This document shows, one piece after another, positions 3,465-37,096 of a stretch of 63,798 nt of DNA; within the stretch, counting starts at the first letter, position 1, and each line of letters starts with the position of its first letter. Below the pieces are notes generated by a model. The model searched no databases, was not told the origin of the DNA, and saw only the letters and a list, made by a program, of their open reading frames with translations. The position numbers and the translations under genes were made by a program. The DNA is from Pseudomonadota bacterium. GTDB lineage: Bacteria; Desulfobacterota; Binatia; Bin18. The stretch is from positions 1-63,798 of the forward strand of contig SYOC01000222.1 of assembly GCA_005804965.1 (NCBI GenBank), in the 5' to 3' direction.

Positions 3465-3719
3465 ATGACAGCTAGGCATCGTAAAACGTTAACGGCCATT
3501 TTCGATAACCCGGTTCGAGCGAATATCACCTGGACTGATATTGAGAGTTTGCTGAGGGCCTGTGGAGCGGAAATCAGTGAGGGCCGGGGCTCTAGAGTGC
3601 GCATTGCTCTTCAAGGAGTACGCGCGGTGTTTCATCGTCCTCATCCACAAAAAGAGACAGACAAGGGTGCTGTGGTATCGATGCGTCGTTTCCTTACAGA
3701 AGCAGGAGTAACGCCATAA
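3465..3719 (+). CDS. hicA: HicA-family mRNA interferase toxin
   Basis: 84 aa reading KTLTAIFDNPVRANITWTDIESLLRACGAEISEGRGSRVRI, a HicA/YcfA-like pattern. Its stop overlaps the start of the next gene (TAATG). Confidence 0.8.
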   Translation: MTARHRKTLTAIFDNPVRANITWTDIESLLRACGAEISEGRGSRVRIALQGVRAVFHRPHPQKETDKGAVVSMRRFLTEAGVTP

Positions 3720-4066
3720 TGGAATACAAAGGGTATCTTGCTCATATCGCCTTCGATGCGCAGGCGAATCTCTTTCATGGCGAAGTTATCAACATCCGAG
3801 ATGTTGTGACGTTTCAAGGGCACTCAGTCGATGAACTCCGTCAGGCATTTATCGATTCTATCGAAGACTATCTATCGTTTTGTGCCGAGCGTGAGGAAGC
3901 ACCAGACCAGCCCTTCTCCGGGCGCTTCACTGTCCGCCTGTCGCCGGAGCAACATCGCAAGGTCATTGTTGCAGCCGAGAAAGCTGGCAAAGATATCGCC
4001 CAATGGGTCGCGGAGGCGCTAGAACAAGCCGTAGGGTCTAGTGGCCGTGAGGAAGTACGCGGTTAA
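3719..4066 (+). CDS. hicB: HicB-family antitoxin
   Basis: 115 aa reading MEYKGYLAHIAFDAQANLFHGEVINIRDVVTFQGHSVDELRQAF...FSGRFTVRLSPEQHRKV, a HicB N-domain plus an RHH-like tail. It is coupled to hicA. Confidence 0.8.
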   Translation: MEYKGYLAHIAFDAQANLFHGEVINIRDVVTFQGHSVDELRQAFIDSIEDYLSFCAEREEAPDQPFSGRFTVRLSPEQHRKVIVAAEKAGKDIAQWVAEALEQAVGSSGREEVRG

Positions 4067-5062: not shown

Positions 5063-5689
5063 ATGCTGCGATCTCATGTTCGACGGTTGTCCGCGACTCT
5101 TGGGCTTCTGGTAGCGAGTGGAATGCTCCCGAACCTTGTCCAGGCGCAAGCCGTCATCACCAAATTCAACGGCACAGCGACGGATATCGGCCTCCCACGC
5201 GGCCCAGGCCAAGTCGGCGGTGTGGAGTTTCGTGTTCACGGCAGCTTCGTCTACACAGGAAGCCTCAATCTTCCTACCTCCACCGCTACGGTTCATGATC
5301 TGCTTGCAGAACTCGGTCCAGGCGGTCGAGGCGAGCTGATCAAAATGACGGATGAAGTCTCGTTTCTTCCGATAACGCTTTCTCCACGAGCCACCGGCAA
5401 AACGAACGAAGCGGTGTATGACTCACCGAAGCAGTTCCGTCCACAGATCCGTTTTCAGGTCAACAAGCGCTATCCGGCGGCAGGCATTTACGAATTCGCG
5501 TTCCGTTTAGACAGAGGCTTGGCGCGGAAGCAACCCTTGCTGTGCGCCATTGATCCGCAAGACCGTCGCTCGAAAACATGGATGACCTTCAGCTTCGAGA
5601 TCAATGACGGCGTCAACCCACCGATGACCTTGTCTACCACACAGCCGTGGGAATGCGCCCTCGGCGGCTTCCAGATGCGGAGGAAGTAG
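5063..5689 (+). CDS. secreted hypothetical protein
   Basis: The ATG at 5063 lies 7 nt after AAGGAGGA. The signal peptide is MLRSHVRRLSATLGLLVASGMLPNLVQAQA. I recognise no domain. Confidence 0.5.
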   Translation: MLRSHVRRLSATLGLLVASGMLPNLVQAQAVITKFNGTATDIGLPRGPGQVGGVEFRVHGSFVYTGSLNLPTSTATVHDLLAELGPGGRGELIKMTDEVSFLPITLSPRATGKTNEAVYDSPKQFRPQIRFQVNKRYPAAGIYEFAFRLDRGLARKQPLLCAIDPQDRRSKTWMTFSFEINDGVNPPMTLSTTQPWECALGGFQMRRK

Positions 5690-5720
5690 GAACCGTTCTC
5701 TCCGAGGCGAGGAACTGGCA

Positions 5721-6797
5721 ATGCCCAACCTACAAGAACTCTGGCGACCGATTACCAACAACTTTTCCCCTGTCAAACAGGTGCGTGTGGAAGACGTTGA
5801 GCGCTTTTTCGTTGATCGTAATGAGGCTGACCCTGTACGAAGCCTGATTGCTTCCTGGAAACTCGAATGCCAACTGAGTATTGGACAACCGACGCCTTAC
5901 ACCGCGCTCTTGACCGGGCATATTGGTAGCGGAAAAAGCTCGGAGTTGCTGCGCTTGGGGTATGAATTGGCCAATGACTTTTTTGCGGTGTGGTTCGATG
6001 CAGAGGCGAGTTTATGGACAGAGACCACCAATCACTTCGACGTAATCTTGGCCATGGGAGTCGCGGTACACGCCGCTGCACAACGAGCCACTCTTCAACC
6101 CGACCCGCGCTTGCTTGAGACATTCATTAGGAGTCTGGCCAAACTGGTGCGCCGTTTCGAGGACCGCAAAGGCTATCGTCTGGAGGCGGCCCAGCTTCTT
6201 CGTCAGGTTTTTGCTGTAGTGCTCGTGACTGGCGCACTGGCGGCAGGAGGCTTACCCGCCGCGTTGCCAGCGGGTGCGTTCCTATATGGCGCAGAGAAAG
6301 TTGCCAAAACCGCTCGCGTGGAGCTGAATGTTCAGGATACGCATATACGAGAGCTTAGCTCGTTGCCGAATCGCGCTGAAGTCCTTGGAGCATTGAACGC
6401 GATCATTGCCGATATTGAACAGAAGGCCCAAAAGCCACTGCTCATCCTTGTCGATGGACTCGACAAAGTCCCTCCGAGCCGGGCCGAGTTGCTGTTCGTG
6501 AAGAACGACATCCTCGCTGCGCCTGCCTGCGCCTTAGTGTATGCGGCACCGATAGAGTTCTCTTATCGTTCTGCCAGCGAGCGCAGGCCGACGGATCTGT
6601 TCGGAGCGCAACGGATGCTTCCGAACCCGGCGGTCCACCAGCGTCCGCCCAGAGGAGAAGGCTGGAAGGCCTCACGCGACCCCAACGAAGCCGGGCTGAG
6701 CGTTATGAGAAAAGTCGCCGCGAAACGCATCGAAGCGAACGGGAGAACTACGGGGGAAGTCATCACTCCGATGCATTGGATTTACTGGCACGCATGA
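5721..6797 (+). CDS. KAP-like P-loop NTPase, N-terminal 358 codons (apparent frameshift at the 3' end)
   Basis: Walker A is LLTGHIGSGKSSELL and Walker B is LLILVDGLDKV. A 29-residue hydrophobic stretch (VFAVVLVTGALAAGGLPAALPAGAFLYGA, nt 6207-6293) is inserted between them. The frame ends in the implausible tail PMHWIYWHA. Confidence 0.65.
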   Translation: MPNLQELWRPITNNFSPVKQVRVEDVERFFVDRNEADPVRSLIASWKLECQLSIGQPTPYTALLTGHIGSGKSSELLRLGYELANDFFAVWFDAEASLWTETTNHFDVILAMGVAVHAAAQRATLQPDPRLLETFIRSLAKLVRRFEDRKGYRLEAAQLLRQVFAVVLVTGALAAGGLPAALPAGAFLYGAEKVAKTARVELNVQDTHIRELSSLPNRAEVLGALNAIIADIEQKAQKPLLILVDGLDKVPPSRAELLFVKNDILAAPACALVYAAPIEFSYRSASERRPTDLFGAQRMLPNPAVHQRPPRGEGWKASRDPNEAGLSVMRKVAAKRIEANGRTTGEVITPMHWIYWHA

Positions 6798-7108
6798 GTG
6801 GTGGGTTAATGCGAGATTTTGTTCGCTCTTTCCACGAAGCTGCGGTCGCGGCCCTTTCTGACAGGAAGGAACGCATTGATCTTGTGATTGCTCAAAAGGT
6901 CATGAACCAACATCGCGAAGCGCGCAATCTGGAACTCGACTTAAAACATCGGGAGGCCCTGCGCACGGTGCTAGAGCATGGATTTCTGACAGGACGGCAG
7001 CGTGAGGTCGAAGAAGCACTATTGCGGAGCACCTATTTGTTGGTCTACAGCGATGAAAGTAGTGGCTCGTGGTTCGATGCCCACCCCGAGGTCTTGCCGC
7101 TTCTTTAA
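6776..7108 (+). CDS. C-terminal (lid-like) part of the same NTPase, in the -1 frame
   Basis: Read from 6770, this frame gives DALDLLARMSGGLMRDFVRSF, a typical AAA-type lid motif that continues ...GEVITP of the upstream ORF. Confidence 0.55.
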   Translation: MDLLARMSGGLMRDFVRSFHEAAVAALSDRKERIDLVIAQKVMNQHREARNLELDLKHREALRTVLEHGFLTGRQREVEEALLRSTYLLVYSDESSGSWFDAHPEVLPLL

Positions 7109-7122
7109 CGTGTTGAGCGTGT

Positions 7123-9729
7123 ATGCCCTCCTTCGCTGACACCCTCGAACTGATGCGGATTGAGCTGGAGCAATGCGACGGGACGTTGCTGCTCGTCGGC
7201 GTGTGCGATGATACCAATCTGCGCGACTACGCGATCAAGCGCCTGCGTGACTGTGTGGCGTCGCAGATCAGCCTGCGTGACTTTCGTTACGATCCCGAGC
7301 ACCTCAGTTTCCTCGAAGCTGTGGCCGACTCCACGCAAACGGGGAACGGGCGCGTAGCGCTCTCCGTGACCGGGCTGGAAGAACTTCCTCACGATAAATG
7401 GAGCGAGGCCATCAAACTGCTCAATCTCCAGCGTAATCGCTTCGGCTACACTGGCGCAGCCGTCATCCTGTGGATCAATCGTGCAGCACTCGCGGAAATC
7501 GCTACCAAGTCAGCCGATTTTTTCTCTTGGCGCAGCGGTACGTTCATCATCGAACCACCACCAGGCTGGGACACGCTCGACAGTCAGCGGGAGAGCTACC
7601 TTCAAGCTCTGGTCAAGCAGAACGAGTTCGTCAATCTGCAGGGACTAACTCCTATGCGCGGTGGGCAGATCGTGCAGATGCGCATGGATGACATCTTCGT
7701 GCCGTTGCGTGCCGAGTATGAGGTCCTTGAGACAAAGCTCTTGCGTCTTCCCGCCGGTGTGATGGGGCCGGAAGAATCTGAGGTGCAAGTCATTCAAGAG
7801 GCTGATCTGAGTGTTTCCCTCCGAGGCATAAGATCTTCGCCGAGATCGCAAGTCATGGCGCTGCGGGTTTCGAAGCGTGTACTCGCTGACGAGGATCAAC
7901 AGGACATTCCACCTGAGCTACGAACCACGCTGCAACACTTTTTGGCGGAGGAGCGGCCACGGGTCGAGACCCGCCCGGTGGAAATTGCCGACATGCTCAA
8001 GGACCGTCATGCCGTCGTGCTAGGTGACCCGGGGGCCGGGAAAACGACGTTGCTGCGTTATTTGGTCTACATGCTGGCCAAAGCGCGACTTGGCCACCAA
8101 CCGTCGGCTGTTCTTGAGCAGCAGGCTGACCTCACCTCCTGCCTGCCGGTCTACCTGCGTATCGGCGAGTATGCTCAACACTGTCACTTCCATCCGGAAA
8201 CGACGATCACCGCTTTTGCTCTGACCAGTGCCCAAGCCCGGCAACTGCCGTTGTCCGAGGCGTTGCTCACGCATGAGCTGCAAGAAAATCGCGTCGTCTT
8301 CTTGCTCGATGGGCTCGACGAAATCACTGCTGCCAGTGATCGCCGCGATATGGCCCAGCGCATCGAAGAGTTCGTGCGTGCGCATCCTCAGCGGCGCGTT
8401 ATCATCACCTCGCGCCTGGTGGGTTATCGTGAGGTACCGCTTAGCCAAGAGTTTGCTCAGTTTACCATCCGCCCGTTCGAGCCGGATGATATCCGCCGGT
8501 TCATCGACCAATGGTATGCAGCGCTCCAAGAGCCAGAAAGCGCAGGGGAATTATGTAAGGCGATTGCAGACAGCCCGTCCGTGCGCCGGTTGGCGGCGAA
8601 TCCGCTGTTGCTGACGGTGATCGCCTTGATTCATCGCCGTCCGGCCAAGCTGCCACATCAACGAGCGACACTCTACAAGCTGGCCGCCGAGACGCTGGTC
8701 GATCAATGGATGACTCAGCGGCGCGTGATCCCGGAAGGTTGGGATGTGCAAGAAACCTTGCAGGTGCTGCTGCCGGCGGTGGCGTGGCATCTGCATGCGA
8801 CCACCTCCAGCGGTTTGATCGGTGAGCACGCGTTACACGACCTTCTCGTGAAAACGTTGCGCGAGCAAGACGACGCGTTGCGTGAAGATGAGGCCCAGCG
8901 CCGCGCGGCGCAGTTTCGTCGCAATGTCAGTGAGTTTAGCGGCATCTTTCTGGAACGTGGCCTCGATCAAGAGGGGCGTGGCCTCTACGGTTTTCTTCAC
9001 CTCACCTTCGAGGAGTATTTCGCTGCCGTGCAGTTAAACGACCAATGGGACCGCAAGGGGCCGGCTGCCTTCAAGCCGCTGCTGCATCAGCCGCGCTGGA
9101 CGGAGGTGATGCTCTTAACGGCCGGTCACCTCAGCGAGTCGGGTCGGTTCCGCACTACGGAGTTTGTCAAAGATATTCGCTCGGCACGAAGCCCATACGA
9201 GAAGATTTTGCATCGCGATTTGTTGCTGGCCGCGCGTTGTCTTGCCGACGACATAGGGATCGACGTCGGCCTGCGCCGTGAATTGGTGGCGAAGCTCGTC
9301 GAACATGCGTTTGCCTCCAGTTCGCCTTCTGCACTCCAAGGAGACCTGCGCCAGATGCTCGTTCGTTTCGCTGGAGTGGCCGCCGAAAAAGAGGCAGTGG
9401 CCGCGGTGCTGGGCATGTTGCAGGATAGGGAGGGGAACGTGCGCAGGGCCGCCGTCGCGACCTTGGGGCAGTGGGGGGGGAGTATCGCCACCGGGGAGAC
9501 GCTGAGCGCGGTGCTGGGCATGTTGCGGGATAGAGAGGAGTACGTGCGCAGGGCCGCCGTCGCGACCTTGGGGCAGTGGTCTAGCTTCATTCGCCTTGCG
9601 CAATGGTCGTACACACTAGACGACTTCGCTCGGCTCGCACGCAGTCAACAGGCCGAGAAAAAAGAAGCTGGTTATGTGTGTCTACGTAATGTGCTGGCGG
9701 GCGAGCAGGAAAGTGCTCTCGATGCGTAA
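7123..9729 (+). CDS. NACHT-family STAND NTPase with C-terminal HEAT (PBS-lyase-type) repeats
   Basis: 868 aa. Walker A is VLGDPGAGKTT (8023-8049) and Walker B is VVFLLDGLDEI. The C-terminus carries repeats of the form VRRAAVATLGQW. The N-terminal ~150 aa form an alpha/beta-looking domain without a P-loop. The start lies 14 nt after the previous stop. Confidence 0.85.
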   Translation: MPSFADTLELMRIELEQCDGTLLLVGVCDDTNLRDYAIKRLRDCVASQISLRDFRYDPEHLSFLEAVADSTQTGNGRVALSVTGLEELPHDKWSEAIKLLNLQRNRFGYTGAAVILWINRAALAEIATKSADFFSWRSGTFIIEPPPGWDTLDSQRESYLQALVKQNEFVNLQGLTPMRGGQIVQMRMDDIFVPLRAEYEVLETKLLRLPAGVMGPEESEVQVIQEADLSVSLRGIRSSPRSQVMALRVSKRVLADEDQQDIPPELRTTLQHFLAEERPRVETRPVEIADMLKDRHAVVLGDPGAGKTTLLRYLVYMLAKARLGHQPSAVLEQQADLTSCLPVYLRIGEYAQHCHFHPETTITAFALTSAQARQLPLSEALLTHELQENRVVFLLDGLDEITAASDRRDMAQRIEEFVRAHPQRRVIITSRLVGYREVPLSQEFAQFTIRPFEPDDIRRFIDQWYAALQEPESAGELCKAIADSPSVRRLAANPLLLTVIALIHRRPAKLPHQRATLYKLAAETLVDQWMTQRRVIPEGWDVQETLQVLLPAVAWHLHATTSSGLIGEHALHDLLVKTLREQDDALREDEAQRRAAQFRRNVSEFSGIFLERGLDQEGRGLYGFLHLTFEEYFAAVQLNDQWDRKGPAAFKPLLHQPRWTEVMLLTAGHLSESGRFRTTEFVKDIRSARSPYEKILHRDLLLAARCLADDIGIDVGLRRELVAKLVEHAFASSSPSALQGDLRQMLVRFAGVAAEKEAVAAVLGMLQDREGNVRRAAVATLGQWGGSIATGETLSAVLGMLRDREEYVRRAAVATLGQWSSFIRLAQWSYTLDDFARLARSQQAEKKEAGYVCLRNVLAGEQESALDA
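9403..9583 (+). repeat. 105-bp tandem duplication inside the HEAT region
   Basis: 9403-9474 and 9508-9579 differ at 4 of 72 nt. They encode AVLGMLQDREGNVRRAAVATLGQW and AVLGMLRDREEYVRRAAVATLGQW. Confidence 0.85.
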
Positions 9730-34001: not shown

Positions 34002-34919
34002 TTAGCGCACGGGCAGCATCAGCCGTGCTTCTCCTGATTGCAACTCCACACCATCTTTCTGGATCGACACGACTTTGTAGCCTCCGATAGTATCGCCCTC
34101 GTGGGCCATGGTCAGAGGTCCGCCGTTCACTCGAATAAACGCGATCCGCTTCTCCGGATCGCTTGACCATTGCAACATACTGAGCGTTGTCTCGGTTGCC
34201 GAAGACGGGTCGCCCGTAGGGACTTCTTTCGTGTCTGGCGGTGCGGTGCGGGCCGGCGACGGTTGTTGGTGGCGCTGGCGCCATTCGCGTACGGTGGCAG
34301 ATTCGGTTGCCGGAGGCTCATCAGCTGAGACGGCTCCAACCATAACCCGTGGTCTGGCCGCAGCCTCTTTCGGTGGTGTCGGGAGCGGTGGCGGGGTGAA
34401 GGGCGAGCGTTGTACTGCCGACCCGGGAGGGGGACTGGGTGGTGGCGTTGCCTCTGGTGTGGGAAGGGTGGCGACCGGGATGGGTGGTAGATGCTCTTGA
34501 ACAAGGGTCGCGGCGGAGGGCCGCGGACTTGTCTGCTGTTGCGGCGGTGGGACTGGCGCGACCGGTGGTGTGACGGCTGCTGCCCGAGGCGTGGGGTCTG
34601 CTTTCGCTGGGACGCTGGGTGAGGCTGTTGGCGCAGGCGTTCGTGCGGTCGTTGTTGGGCGAGGCATGCTGCTGCGAGCAGGAGGGGCAACGTCCGGCTG
34701 CGACGGCCAAAAGAGGAAACTGGCTCCGGCAACGCCGCCCACCAGGAGACATCCCAGGAGGAGGGGGAACGCGAGACGTGTCTTTCGTTGCGCTTGCGGC
34801 AGTTGTGAAGGCAAGGTTGTTTTGAACGGAGATGAGAGCAGTAAACGCGACCGTACATCGGCGGTGCGCGAACGGCGCTCTTCCTCGATTTTGCGGAGGG
34901 CGTCAAGAATTGTGCTCAT
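34002..34919 (-). CDS. GspB/ExeB-like type II secretion accessory protein
   Basis: From the ATG at 34919 it begins MSTILDALRKIEEERRSR. It then has one TM segment, a long Pro-rich linker and a C-terminal region reading VNGGPLTMAHEGDTIGGYKVVSIQKDGVELQ. Confidence 0.65.
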   Translation of the reverse strand: MSTILDALRKIEEERRSRTADVRSRLLLSSPFKTTLPSQLPQAQRKTRLAFPLLLGCLLVGGVAGASFLFWPSQPDVAPPARSSMPRPTTTARTPAPTASPSVPAKADPTPRAAAVTPPVAPVPPPQQQTSPRPSAATLVQEHLPPIPVATLPTPEATPPPSPPPGSAVQRSPFTPPPLPTPPKEAAARPRVMVGAVSADEPPATESATVREWRQRHQQPSPARTAPPDTKEVPTGDPSSATETTLSMLQWSSDPEKRIAFIRVNGGPLTMAHEGDTIGGYKVVSIQKDGVELQSGEARLMLPVR

Positions 34920-36858
34920 GAGCGTGTTCCTGGCTAGGACTTTGGGCATCTTGTGATGTGGGTGGCGTGGTCTCGGGACTCGGGGAAGAAGAGGACGAGA
35001 CCGTCAGGCTCGGGCGCGTATAGCTACTCACGGCATTGTACAAGGAGATCATCGTCTGTGGCCCGACAACGCCATCAGGAGTAAGGCGGCGGCTCTTCTG
35101 AAACCGCGCCACGAGGTCCTCTGTCTTACGGCTGTACGTATCCAATCGCATATCTGGTGAGATCTGGACGTTGGCGTCTGGTGTCTGAGAAAGCAACTGA
35201 TAGAGCCGTTTCACCTGTTGCCCGACGCTCCCCACGCCGAGCGGAGCCCCGACATTCTCAAAATCTTTCCAAAAGAGGTGAGCTTTCCCGAACCAGTGAT
35301 CGGTGAGGACTGACACTGGCACATCCCACTCACGATCTAAGAGAAACCGGCAGCGGCCCTCGCTAATACCCACCAGCAGGGCAAAGCGAGGCTCGTGACT
35401 CGCGGGTGTCGTGAGTTCCAAGATGGCCGGGAGATCGAGCAAGGAGAGCAAATTGAACGCACTGTTGAGCGGCAGGTATTCTAAGCGTCGAGTTCGAGCA
35501 ATGGCGCTCAAGTCCATCGTGCCGCCACGCCATTCTTCGTTCTGCAGTGCTTTGACGTGCCAAGCGCGAAGCAAGGCGGCTGTGGATTGAACAGCACTCG
35601 CGACTGCTGTTTTCTGTTGAAGCGTTTGGAAGAATTCCTGATCTTTATCATTCTGTTCAGGCGAAGACGCCTGAGCTGCTGCGCCCAGTGGCAAGGCTGG
35701 CGGCGGTAACGCTTCTGCTAATAGTGTCGTTCCTGACGAAGGTGGGGGAGGGACATCGGGCGGTTGAGCAGATGGGGCGGCGTTGGTATTCACTGCGATG
35801 GATGAGGTTGCTGCCGGTGCGGGCGGCTGTGGGCCCGAGTTCGCTGGCGTGAGAGCCGGCGGTGCCGGTGCAACCATTGGCGCGGGTGGAGCTTCGGAGA
35901 CCACGACCGGTGGTTGTTTCATTTGCGAGCGCGGGAAGAACCACCCATGCGTGGAGGCAAAGGCGAGCATCGCTGCGACGAGCAGGACGAGGCCCCCAAC
36001 CACTGCCGGGGACGAAAGAAAGCTGGGAAGGCGGGACGCAAAACTCGGTTCCTCACGGCCCAATTCTTTAGCGGCTTGGAGAATGGCGTCACGTTCGATC
36101 CGCCGTTCTTCTCGGGTATAGCCAATCAGCAGTGCGCGATGGCAAAGAATGTTCACGAGCCGGGGAATGCCGTGCGAGATGCGATAGACCGTCGTGAGCG
36201 CGTCGGCAGAAAAATGCACCAGTTCCCGACCGTCGGCCGCCACACGTACTCGGTGGCGAACATATGACTTGGTCTCGTCCTCGTTGAGTGGACCGAGATG
36301 CCAGCGCAGCGTGACTCGTTGGTCGAGCTGCGCGAGGTCGGGGCGAGCGAGAATGTCGCGTAGCTCGGGTTGGCCGACCAACATGATTTGCAGCAGCTTG
36401 GCTCGCTCGGTTTCGAGATTCGACAAGAGCCGAAGCTGCTCCAAGACACTGGGCTCAAGGTCCTGTGCTTCATCGACAATCACGACGACGCGGCGACCCT
36501 CGGCTTGCTGGTCGAGCAAGAAGCGATTCAGCGCTTCAATCAGCTCCTTCTTGCTCGTCGAAGAAGAAGGAATCCCAAGGTCGGCATTAATAGTCTGGAG
36601 CAGCTCCACCGCCGACAGCGCGGGGTTGAAGATGTAGGCGACGATAGTGCTGCTGTCGAGATTACGGACAAGCGTGCGCAGGAGCATCGTCTTACCGGCA
36701 CCGATCTCGCCGGTGATGACCACGACTCCGCTGCCTTCTCTGACGCCGAACAGCAGATGGCCCAACGCCTCTTGGTGATTGGTGCTGAGAAAAAGATAGT
36801 CAGGGTCCGGGGTTAATCGGAAGGGATTGTCGCGGAACCCGTAAAATTCCTCGTACAT
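34903..36858 (-). CDS. ExeA/GspA-like AAA ATPase with C-terminal peptidoglycan-binding domain
   Basis: From the ATG at 36858 it begins MYEEFYGFRDNPFRLTPDPDYLF. Walker A is GEIGAGKT. It has a TM segment, a Pro-rich linker and a PG_binding_1-like tail (LTPDGVVGPQTMISL). Confidence 0.85.
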   Translation of the reverse strand: MYEEFYGFRDNPFRLTPDPDYLFLSTNHQEALGHLLFGVREGSGVVVITGEIGAGKTMLLRTLVRNLDSSTIVAYIFNPALSAVELLQTINADLGIPSSSTSKKELIEALNRFLLDQQAEGRRVVVIVDEAQDLEPSVLEQLRLLSNLETERAKLLQIMLVGQPELRDILARPDLAQLDQRVTLRWHLGPLNEDETKSYVRHRVRVAADGRELVHFSADALTTVYRISHGIPRLVNILCHRALLIGYTREERRIERDAILQAAKELGREEPSFASRLPSFLSSPAVVGGLVLLVAAMLAFASTHGWFFPRSQMKQPPVVVSEAPPAPMVAPAPPALTPANSGPQPPAPAATSSIAVNTNAAPSAQPPDVPPPPSSGTTLLAEALPPPALPLGAAAQASSPEQNDKDQEFFQTLQQKTAVASAVQSTAALLRAWHVKALQNEEWRGGTMDLSAIARTRRLEYLPLNSAFNLLSLLDLPAILELTTPASHEPRFALLVGISEGRCRFLLDREWDVPVSVLTDHWFGKAHLFWKDFENVGAPLGVGSVGQQVKRLYQLLSQTPDANVQISPDMRLDTYSRKTEDLVARFQKSRRLTPDGVVGPQTMISLYNAVSSYTRPSLTVSSSSSPSPETTPPTSQDAQSPSQEHAHEHNS

Positions 36859-37096
36859 AGCGTGAATACGACGGAAAGCCTTCAAGGTAAATTCATCGTG
36901 CCCTCGGGCAGAAGGGATCTGTCTTGCCCGCATGGACGATGTTGCTGGCCATCATGGACCGGCACGATAGAAGGAGTCAAGGTGCATGCCGTTGCTTCAC
37001 TCGGGCAAGAATCTTGGCTTTTGCAAGAAAATACCTTACAGGTAGGGACGCGAGATGTCGCATCCCGGCGGTCGGGGAGAATGGAGAAAGATACTC

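Follow-up and report, generated by a model that had tools for sequence, protein, structure and literature searches.

The window analysed here is a stretch of 63,798 nucleotides (nt) from a Pseudomonadota bacterium of the class Binatia (contig SYOC01000222.1 of assembly GCA_005804965.1), and the subject of this study is a pair of neighbouring genes for P-loop proteins of the STAND/AAA+ type. As described in the original prediction, which was made from the letters of the DNA, three co-oriented open reading frames (ORFs) follow each other on the forward strand with gaps of 31 and 14 nt. The first one encodes 208 amino acids (aa) with a signal-peptide-like N-terminus (5063..5689). It is followed by a P-loop ATPase gene, in the following called gene A (5721..7108), and by gene B (7123..9729), whose 868-aa product comprises an N-terminal domain (N-dom), a linker, a NACHT domain and a short HEAT array. 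The comparison with other genomes shows that gene A and the N-dom belong together.

Gene A is split in the window into a first frame from 5721 to 6797 and a second frame. The original prediction had taken 5721-7108 to be one frameshifted gene, and the joined product of 462 aa indeed aligns over 100% of its length with homologues of 450-465 aa. According to a DNA alignment with two orthologues (on the contigs L001 and L013) the frame is shifted by a single-base deletion between positions 6769 and 6770 of the forward strand. The same truncated product of 358 aa is encoded together with the 868-aa product of gene B in at least two further assemblies, with 1-3 residues different; for the 358-aa product the three assemblies (contigs of 11.8, 63.8 and 131.8 kb) show a one-residue difference, I11M. 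A random read error is therefore ruled out, and the deletion is fixed in the population and no one-off sequencing error. Programmed -1 frameshifting was also considered, but there is no slippery heptamer of the type X XXY YYZ at the site and the orthologues are unshifted in their DNA, so that a plain deletion fits better.

The product of gene A carries a Walker A motif GHIGSGKS (5916..5939) and a Walker B motif DGLDK (6453..6467), which is like the D[GAS]hDE signature of NACHT proteins with K replacing E. On the 3' side of the frameshift a lid/sensor-2-type motif SGGLMR (6797..6814) and, at the end of the winged-helix domain, the C-terminal motif WFDAHP (7070..7087) could be identified, all of them on the forward strand. 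In total 67 homologues were found, mostly at 96-100% coverage. In the alignment A3 the residues G66, G69, G71 and K72 of Walker A, D245, G246, L247 and D248 of Walker B as well as G362 and R365 of the lid motif are invariant, and WFDAHP appears as WYD.HP or WFDVNP in distant homologues. The patterns GHxGxGK[ST], hhhhDGLD[KER] and SGGxxR are found family-wide, and the first of them is retained in nearly all of the 80 genome loci described below. Since Walker A, Walker B and SGGxxR are conserved in this way, the family looks catalytically competent. The gene is under purifying selection.

The fold of gene A was modelled on the intact orthologue P0001 with AlphaFold2 (AF2; predicted local distance difference test, pLDDT, 87.7; predicted template modelling score, pTM, 0.88). 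The model consists of an AAA+ core with a helical insertion of ~140 aa between beta2 and the Walker B strand, a lid and a C-terminal winged helix, which is the layout of Orc1/Cdc6-type proteins. A Foldseek comparison, as suggested along with the original prediction, places Cdc6/Orc1 (2qby_A, E 1e-6), TnsC, ORC and RuvB at the top, and the matching Orc1/Cdc6 structures (2qby_A, 1fnn_A, 1w5t_A and 2v1u_A) range from E 1e-6 to 5e-5. A profile search of the PDB sequences yielded for gene A a sole match, between its lid region and the RFC small subunit. The model shows a fold resemblance to Orc1/Cdc6, by which no orthology is implied, and there were no replication genes in the gene A neighbourhoods inspected.

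In Pfam all matches of the window protein stay below the gathering cutoffs, namely AAA_16 (PF13191; 23.3 versus 32.6 bits, E 1e-4), nSTAND_NTPase5 (PF25199; 20.5 versus 34 bits, E 5e-4) and KAP_NTPase (PF07693; 16.1 versus 20 bits, E 7e-3). Among 38 relatives weak matches to nSTAND5 and to AAA_16 are seen in 31 each and to KAP in 16 (at E<0.01, the best being 9e-8). Neither gene A nor the N-dom is covered by Pfam nSTAND1 or nSTAND3. The term 'KAP-like', which had been proposed for the upstream protein, is weak: its KAP score is no better than those of AAA_16 and nSTAND5, and the model resembles Orc1/Cdc6 and TnsC. The best reading of the model is a sensor-less, Orc/Cdc6-STAND-like P-loop ATPase with a weak KAP likeness. 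To take gene A for a KAP membrane NTPase is a tempting misassignment, which is corrected here.

The first ~150 aa of the gene B product had been supposed to adopt an alpha/beta NTPase-like fold without a P-loop, and the structural model agrees with that. The N-dom (aa 1-156, 7123..7590 on the forward strand) is a degenerate AAA+-like alpha/beta domain without Walker A, a motif that is absent from all 194 aligned sequences. The AF2 model of aa 1-165, built from an alignment of 46 sequences, gives a five-stranded beta-alpha-beta domain (pLDDT 94.2, pTM 0.88). All top Foldseek matches in the PDB are to AAA+ cores, among them MuB, the Avs4 NTPase, FtsH and ORC as well as clamp-loader delta and Rif2, which are naturally inactive (E 2e-4 to 2e-3, TM-score ~0.5). 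The suggestion that this domain mirrors the upstream ATPase stands with respect to the fold class and falls with respect to a specific similarity, for which the profile-profile probability is 0.8%. That the N-dom arose by a recent duplication of the gene A core was rejected on the same hhalign comparison, in which only the GLE.L and DGLDK strands align. A match to an effector catalogued for bNACHT or Avs systems was not found; no Pfam or NCBIfam model covers the domain, and its profile gave no match to PDB sequences.

Among the 194 N-dom sequences R104 is conserved in 100% (194/194; codon at 7432..7434, forward strand, LN.xR motif), D132 in 98%, G84 in 93%, N101 in 91%, W117 in 90%, F133 in 84% and W136 in 77%. 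By secondary structure N101 and R104 lie in the alpha3-beta4 loop and D132-R137 in the alpha4-beta5 loop, which includes the DFFSW motif of the window protein (7516..7530, forward strand; family consensus APDFxSWR). Word-indexed protein searches with the N-dom returned only short, close fragments, and an exhaustive search of representatives was needed. With the profile this search retrieved 600 representative clusters at E<=1e-3, in which the N-dom is almost always N-terminal; the family thus comprises at least 600 clusters at 50% identity from bacteria and archaea.

The remainder of gene B is, as had been predicted, a NACHT protein with C-terminal HEAT repeats. The NACHT NTPase domain (PF05729; aa 297-465, 8011..8517) reaches 53.7 bits against a gathering cutoff of 26.7 (E 2.9e-14). 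Its Walker A GDPGAGKT (aa 301-308, 8023..8046) and Walker B DGLDE (aa 396-400, 8308..8322) agree with the definition of the bNACHT paper, which asks for a Walker A GxxxxGK[ST] and a D[GAS]hDE Walker B signature. For aa 1-290 no Pfam match was obtained, and aa 466-700 are conserved with the orthologues. In NCBIfam gene B scores 45.8 bits with EruA (cutoff 1000) and stays likewise far under the cutoff of DS8. Pfam HEAT and HEAT_2 detect two repeats at aa 741-821 (9343..9585; like the NACHT features on the forward strand). These two units are near-identical, with VRRAAVATLGQW occurring twice, and form a contracted array in comparison to ~10-11 units in the orthologues, that is about 8 more. Both ends of the protein align collinearly with the orthologue P0094 of 1153 aa, but ~250 aa are missing within the HEAT array. 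Since the C-terminal tail of gene B is conserved, the alignment identifies the shortening as an internal contraction. An assembly collapse is unlikely: 868 aa are found in three assemblies, and no tandem repeat is detectable in the DNA. In the most divergent of the close pairs (L007 1376-4792), whose ATPase is 31% identical, the partner retains the N-dom and the HEAT repeats, the Walker A of its NACHT has decayed to GEGRSR and Pfam no longer detects the NACHT domain.

The original prediction had proposed a two-NTPase module. The first six neighbourhoods of gene A, reaching down to 31% identity, all keep the downstream N-dom protein (6/6) within unrelated flanks. For the neighbourhood survey that had been suggested, a gene A profile was run against 185,579 species-representative genomes and revealed 80 loci. 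An N-dom ORF lies 5-213 nt downstream of gene A on the same strand in 62 of them and 0.5-0.6 kb downstream in 3 further ones; in 4 loci the contig ends and leaves no room. The 80 loci originate from Binatia, Acidobacteria, Chloroflexi, many Cyanobacteria, Actinobacteria, Planctomycetes, Deinococcota, Gallionella, methanotrophs, cable bacteria, Nannocystaceae, Halobacteria and Methanophagaceae (ANME-type), and those with a directly downstream N-dom span about 10 phyla and two archaeal groups. Because the adjacency is repeated in 62/80 independent genome loci it is far beyond chance, and a chance neighbourhood is ruled out. The same holds in the reverse direction: the distant N-dom proteins P0112, P0159 and P0151, which share ~21-25% identity with the N-dom of the window, each have an ATPase of ~440-457 aa directly upstream, and these ATPases match the gene A profile with E 6e-89, 8e-39 and 3e-92, respectively.

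The part that follows the N-dom differs between the partners of the 80 loci. It is NACHT-TPR, nSTAND1-WD40, (other)-WD40 or TPR only, the latter being found in archaea, Deinococcota, Gallionella and Planctomycetes. The N-dom clusters show NACHT-HEAT, NACHT alone, TPR only without an NTPase, and a kinase preceding the N-dom. As the rest of gene B varies among the loci, the constant partnership, and thus the conserved unit, is ATPase plus N-dom and not ATPase plus NACHT, and NACHT-HEAT is one of several interchangeable architectures. The two-NTPase module of the original prediction is therefore genuine, with this core. It was also right in that no enzymatic effector is recognisable: no such domain is present in gene A, gene B or any partner examined, and there is no recurrent third gene or effector among the 69 nearest neighbours in 18 loci. 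On the scaffold KB217480.1 of Calothrix sp. PCC 7103 two loci ~280 kb apart (L046 and L047) have the same coordinates and scores for the whole pair, which implies that a large segment was duplicated recently or that the module is part of a repeated element.

The secreted 208-aa gene, which had been listed as the first of the three tightly spaced genes, turned out to be a lineage-specific neighbour. In a tblastn search of 93 loci it is found only in the sister contig L001 (93% identity), it is missing between the EamA and ATPase genes in the syntenic locus L008, and its product has no Pfam, PADLOC or NCBIfam match. As a third component it was rejected, being confined to that sister contig. The window also holds, 1.6 kb upstream, a gene set for a HicA toxin (3465-3716) and a HicB antitoxin (3719-4066), which L001 shares; such a HicA/HicB set is found directly upstream of the homologous gene pair on the Acaryochloris plasmid pREB2 (L095) as well. 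Elsewhere in the window a 676-aa ORF on the reverse strand (34903-36933) exhibits a very weak, P-loop-level likeness to the gene A profile (E 0.009). This ORF is no second copy of the module and probably corresponds to the other STAND-type locus alluded to in the original prediction.

We consider it rather probable that the pair represents a widespread two-gene module of the STAND/AAA+ type, in which the N-dom docks to and regulates the ATPase, and of which the window holds a partly degraded copy. Gene A would be the live Orc1/Cdc6-like ATPase, and gene B would always start with the pseudo-ATPase N-dom, followed by interchangeable sensor parts. By analogy the N-dom may serve as the docking site for gene A in an active/inactive AAA+ pair, comparable to clamp-loader gamma/delta-prime, ORC and the nSTAND2 gene pairs. 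In AAA+ assemblies the alpha-to-beta loops face the nucleotide site of the neighbouring subunit. Since the conserved residues N101, R104, D132, F133 and W136 are predicted to lie on alpha-to-beta loops, the N-dom may complete or gate ATP hydrolysis by gene A. In such a cycle the repeat sensor would bind a ligand, the NACHT module, where present, would oligomerise and thereby cluster the N-doms, and the gene A ATPase would be recruited or switched and carry the output. Candidates for this output are the winged helix, by binding of nucleic acids, and, in the insert-bearing clade only, a hydrophobic loop, by association with a membrane. With TPR-only partners gene A would be the sole NTPase switch, an arrangement that might be called a 'split STAND', to which the window locus would add a NACHT in series.

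Several points weigh against this model. R104 is located before beta4, whereas the canonical position of an arginine finger is after beta4; the 'trans-face' placement of the conserved loops follows by geometry from the predicted secondary structure alone; and we infer the binding of the N-dom to gene A from conserved adjacency and from precedent. Moreover, the two parts are not always found side by side. The protein P0184 (L091 904-4167) has a Ser/Thr kinase before its N-dom-NACHT part, with a ParE-like gene upstream and no adjacent ATPase of the family. On the plasmid p057_J of Nostoc sp. C057 a 974-aa protein (L094 4369-7293), encoded directly after a MoxR ATPase gene, has in its N-terminal half the SAV_2336 N-terminal domain (NF041121, 1e-161) and in its C-terminal half a full, motif-intact gene A module (E 1e-81), which is not followed by an N-dom partner. 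A Calothrix/Dulcicalothrix subgroup (L060, L062, L063, L065, L070 and L076) has its gene A-like region embedded in a longer reading frame (up to ~960 aa), again with no N-dom gene after the ATPase. The P-loop reads GQRRIGK[ST] in five of these loci (L060, L062, L063, L065 and L076) and GHIGCGKS in L070, and the ORFs downstream in L062 and L070 are of low complexity, rich in N, Q and G, and start with a signal-peptide-like N-terminus. Finally, the genomic context is mixed, with metabolic, syntenic flanks on the one hand and a plasmid rich in toxin-antitoxin and integrase genes on the other hand, and the ATPase copy of the window is probably impaired. The last two points are considered in the following.

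For the local evolution the window was compared with the sister contig L001, in which the ATPase corresponding to 5721-7108 is located at 5271-6659. Synonymous divergence (dS) amounts to 0.25-0.43 for the flanking genes (92-98% protein identity) and 0.33-0.46 for the 208-aa gene (93%). For the NACHT gene it is mostly 0.2-0.3, with three of ten segments at 0.52-0.59 (90% protein identity). The ATPase ORF reaches a dS of 0.95-1.9, 4-5 times the value of its flanks, at 76% protein identity, with a ratio of nonsynonymous to synonymous divergence (dN/dS) of ~0.1-0.2. The rise in dS begins and stops at the borders of this ORF, which points to a recombination event in one lineage that exchanged only the ATPase allele. 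Allele swap, HEAT contraction and fixed frameshift together show that the locus is evolutionarily restless.

As the 1-nt deletion that interrupts the ATPase is fixed and only two HEAT repeats are left, the system in this genome is probably impaired. It is quite possible, though a little short of an even chance, that the locus of the window is a decaying relic without current function, whatever the family does elsewhere. The frameshift, common to the three assemblies, parts the NTPase core from the sensor-2 motif, a part of the lid and the winged helix, and the reduction of the HEAT array from ~10-11 repeats to 2 points in the same direction. However, no lesion other than the frameshift is present: apart from it both ATPase frames remain open and conserved, and the part 3' of the shift still has a dN/dS of 0.19. 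The NACHT gene is intact and under purifying selection. The split ATPase could still assemble, and an in-frame TTG (6776) and an in-frame ATG (6794) are present after the break.

The genomic context of the pair bears on its role. In Binatia and Acidobacteria the flanks are metabolic and syntenic, with protein identities of 43-55%: in Binatia the pair stands between EamA and an amidase, and in Acidobacteria it follows M28-4HBT-ADH. A further copy, AM1_RS31125/31130, is located on the conjugative Acaryochloris plasmid pREB2 between HicAB and RelE/ParE modules, near an integrase gene and another NACHT gene. Neither protein of the pair is recognised by PADLOC or NCBIfam. The PADLOC run that had been suggested contains no model of the pair and gave for it, gene B included, only matches at the P-loop level or to HEAT fragments. 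At E<=1e-10 PADLOC matches 6-7 of the 69 neighbours, mostly to candidate PDC families, as a raw count. No homologue of gene A was found in phage genomes.

These findings have to be considered for a second alternative, in which the pair has no immune role and acts as a switch in regulation or assembly, like the STAND regulators of the MalT/AfsR type or AAA+ loaders. The repeat protein would then sense an endogenous ligand or client, and the winged-helix ATPase would relay the signal, for example to DNA. The conserved synteny with metabolic chromosomal flanks in Binatia and Acidobacteria, the lack of an effector domain, the Orc/Cdc6-like architecture with a winged helix and the few, mostly candidate-family PADLOC matches among the neighbours are in line with such a role. 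That is also true for a recent classification of STAND clades, in which 391 of 589 are not classed as defence-associated (PMC13581612). On the other side there are multiple paralogous copies per cyanobacterial genome, an occurrence in lineages typical for conflict systems (filamentous cyanobacteria, actinobacteria, cable bacteria and myxobacteria), the pREB2 copy among toxin-antitoxin modules, integrase and second NACHT gene, and the fusion of the module into a MoxR ternary-type system. The replacement of the ATPase allele alone and a HEAT repeat number in flux also speak against it. In favour of a conflict role there are, in addition, the HicA/HicB genes in front of the window pair and expansions specific to certain lineages of filamentous and multicellular prokaryotes. 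We regard a non-immune regulatory or assembly role as unlikely and lean, between an immune and a regulatory role, towards a conflict or signalling system.

The hydrophobic stretch of gene A had been taken as a transmembrane insert, the hallmark of KAP NTPases, and membrane perturbation had been proposed as a possible effector function. The KAP family is reportedly characterized, by Aravind et al. in 2004, by transmembrane helices that accompany the NTPase domain or are inserted into it. A stretch of 29 residues rich in Gly, Ala and Pro (aa 163-191, 6207..6293 on the forward strand) does lie between Walker A and Walker B, which is also where membrane-inserted P-loop NTPases carry theirs, more exactly between strand beta2 and Walker B, and its Kyte-Doolittle mean over 19 residues (2.02) exceeds the classical threshold of 1.6. 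However, the insert region has a pLDDT <50 and no helices in the AF2 model of P0001. With 29-33 aa and a central GGxP it is too short for two full transmembrane helices. Its length is variable among the close homologues, it is absent in P0060, and it is missing from cyanobacterial, archaeal and actinobacterial homologues, being confined to a clade of Binatia, Acidobacteria and Chloroflexi. 'KAP-like with a transmembrane insert' is hence at best a feature of one clade and confers no family identity. An insert that is clade-restricted, variable and without a predicted helix makes a membrane-perturbing effector speculative, and since the gene pair persists in homologues in which the insert is short or missing, the insert cannot be the general output device of the family. 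A KAP membrane NTPase with a transmembrane hairpin, acting as a PifA-like membrane-perturbing effector in abortive infection and triggered by the NACHT-HEAT protein, is thus quite improbable: it could draw on the weak KAP_NTPase matches of the 16/38 relatives, on the NCBI labels 'P-loop NTPase fold protein' (two homologues) and 'KAP family NTPase' (one plasmid homologue) and on HicAB near the locus, but the window protein itself stays under the KAP cutoff, a PADLOC match to Tmn, PifA or KAP and a phage-encoded copy of gene A were not found, and PifA itself has no transmembrane helices (PMC13001434).

Under the two-gene STAND/AAA+ module, which we favour, a large family would exist in which a dead AAA+ domain occupies the N-terminal 'effector' position and a separate live ATPase is encoded next door. 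If the two form a heteromeric ATPase, a trans-regulation between an NLR-like sensor and a second NTPase becomes testable, and hundreds of proteins annotated as 'TPR/HEAT/WD40 repeat protein' or 'P-loop NTPase fold protein' would gain a role. A more far-reaching version is tentative and, in our view, on the doubtful side, namely that the module is an unrecognised and very widespread 'split STAND', in which repeat-sensor proteins would capture and gate a free Orc/Cdc6-like ATPase through an N-terminal pseudo-AAA+ domain that has an invariant arginine. If true, the NACHT versions would contain two NTPase switches in series, a small ATPase and not an enzyme domain would be the output, and the split STAND would constitute a new logic for NLR-like signalling or immunity.

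Prokaryotic STAND and NLR-like proteins are usually read as single-chain machines of effector, NTPase and sensor. As supposed in the original prediction, the pairing appears not to have been described as a system. With the terms used, no description of the ATPase plus N-dom pair was found in the open-access literature, that is in the conflict-system papers of the Aravind laboratory with their supplements, the bNACHT paper, the 2026 STAND survey and keyword searches, among them for nSTAND5, operons of KAP and NACHT, and inactive P-loop N-terminal domains.

Known systems resemble the pair in single aspects. With the KAP NTPases (PifA, Kidins220) and YobI/Tmn gene A shares a P-loop NTPase with an additional hydrophobic-bearing segment between Walker A and B. 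In contrast to these it scores below the KAP cutoff, has no match to YobI, carries a short segment which is not helical in the model and is restricted to one clade, and is predicted to adopt an Orc/Cdc6-TnsC fold. Like Orc1/Cdc6 it is built of three domains, AAA+ core, lid and winged helix, but it lacks a replication context, the identity is ~10-14%, and the ~140-aa helical insert between beta2 and Walker B is additional. In the clamp loader it is the inactive AAA+ subunit delta, and besides it Rif2, which the N-dom structurally resembles in its model.

The bNACHT and Avs proteins are similar to gene B in its bona fide NACHT domain with DGLDE and its C-terminal repeat sensors. However, such a protein is typically encoded by one gene and starts with an enzymatic or adaptor effector, whereas gene B has a pseudo-ATPase N-terminus and is linked to a second ATPase gene; neither an N-terminal effector nor a catalogued defence model could be assigned to it. 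The ternary systems of MoxR, vWA and VMAP or iSTAND (Kaur et al. 2020, PMC7159879) are related by the gene A-like module which follows MoxR on the Nostoc plasmid. The window locus is without a MoxR, vWA or VMAP-like gene, and the arrangement of ATPase and N-dom is a separate one.

The two-gene nSTAND2 systems consist of an active and an inactive STAND partner, for which a hetero-oligomer was predicted (Kaur, Burroughs, Iyer and Aravind 2021, eLife; PMC8195603). The window pair agrees with them in being a two-gene operon in which one NTPase is active and the other has eroded NTP-binding motifs. It differs in that both nSTAND2 partners are full STAND modules, while here the inactive partner is a core of ~150 aa at the N-terminus of a sensor protein, and in that the inactive nSTAND2 partner carries a GT4 or HEPN effector, while the window pair encodes none; this distinction is drawn from the domain architectures. 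In concept the pair fits the known theme of active and inactive STAND partners.

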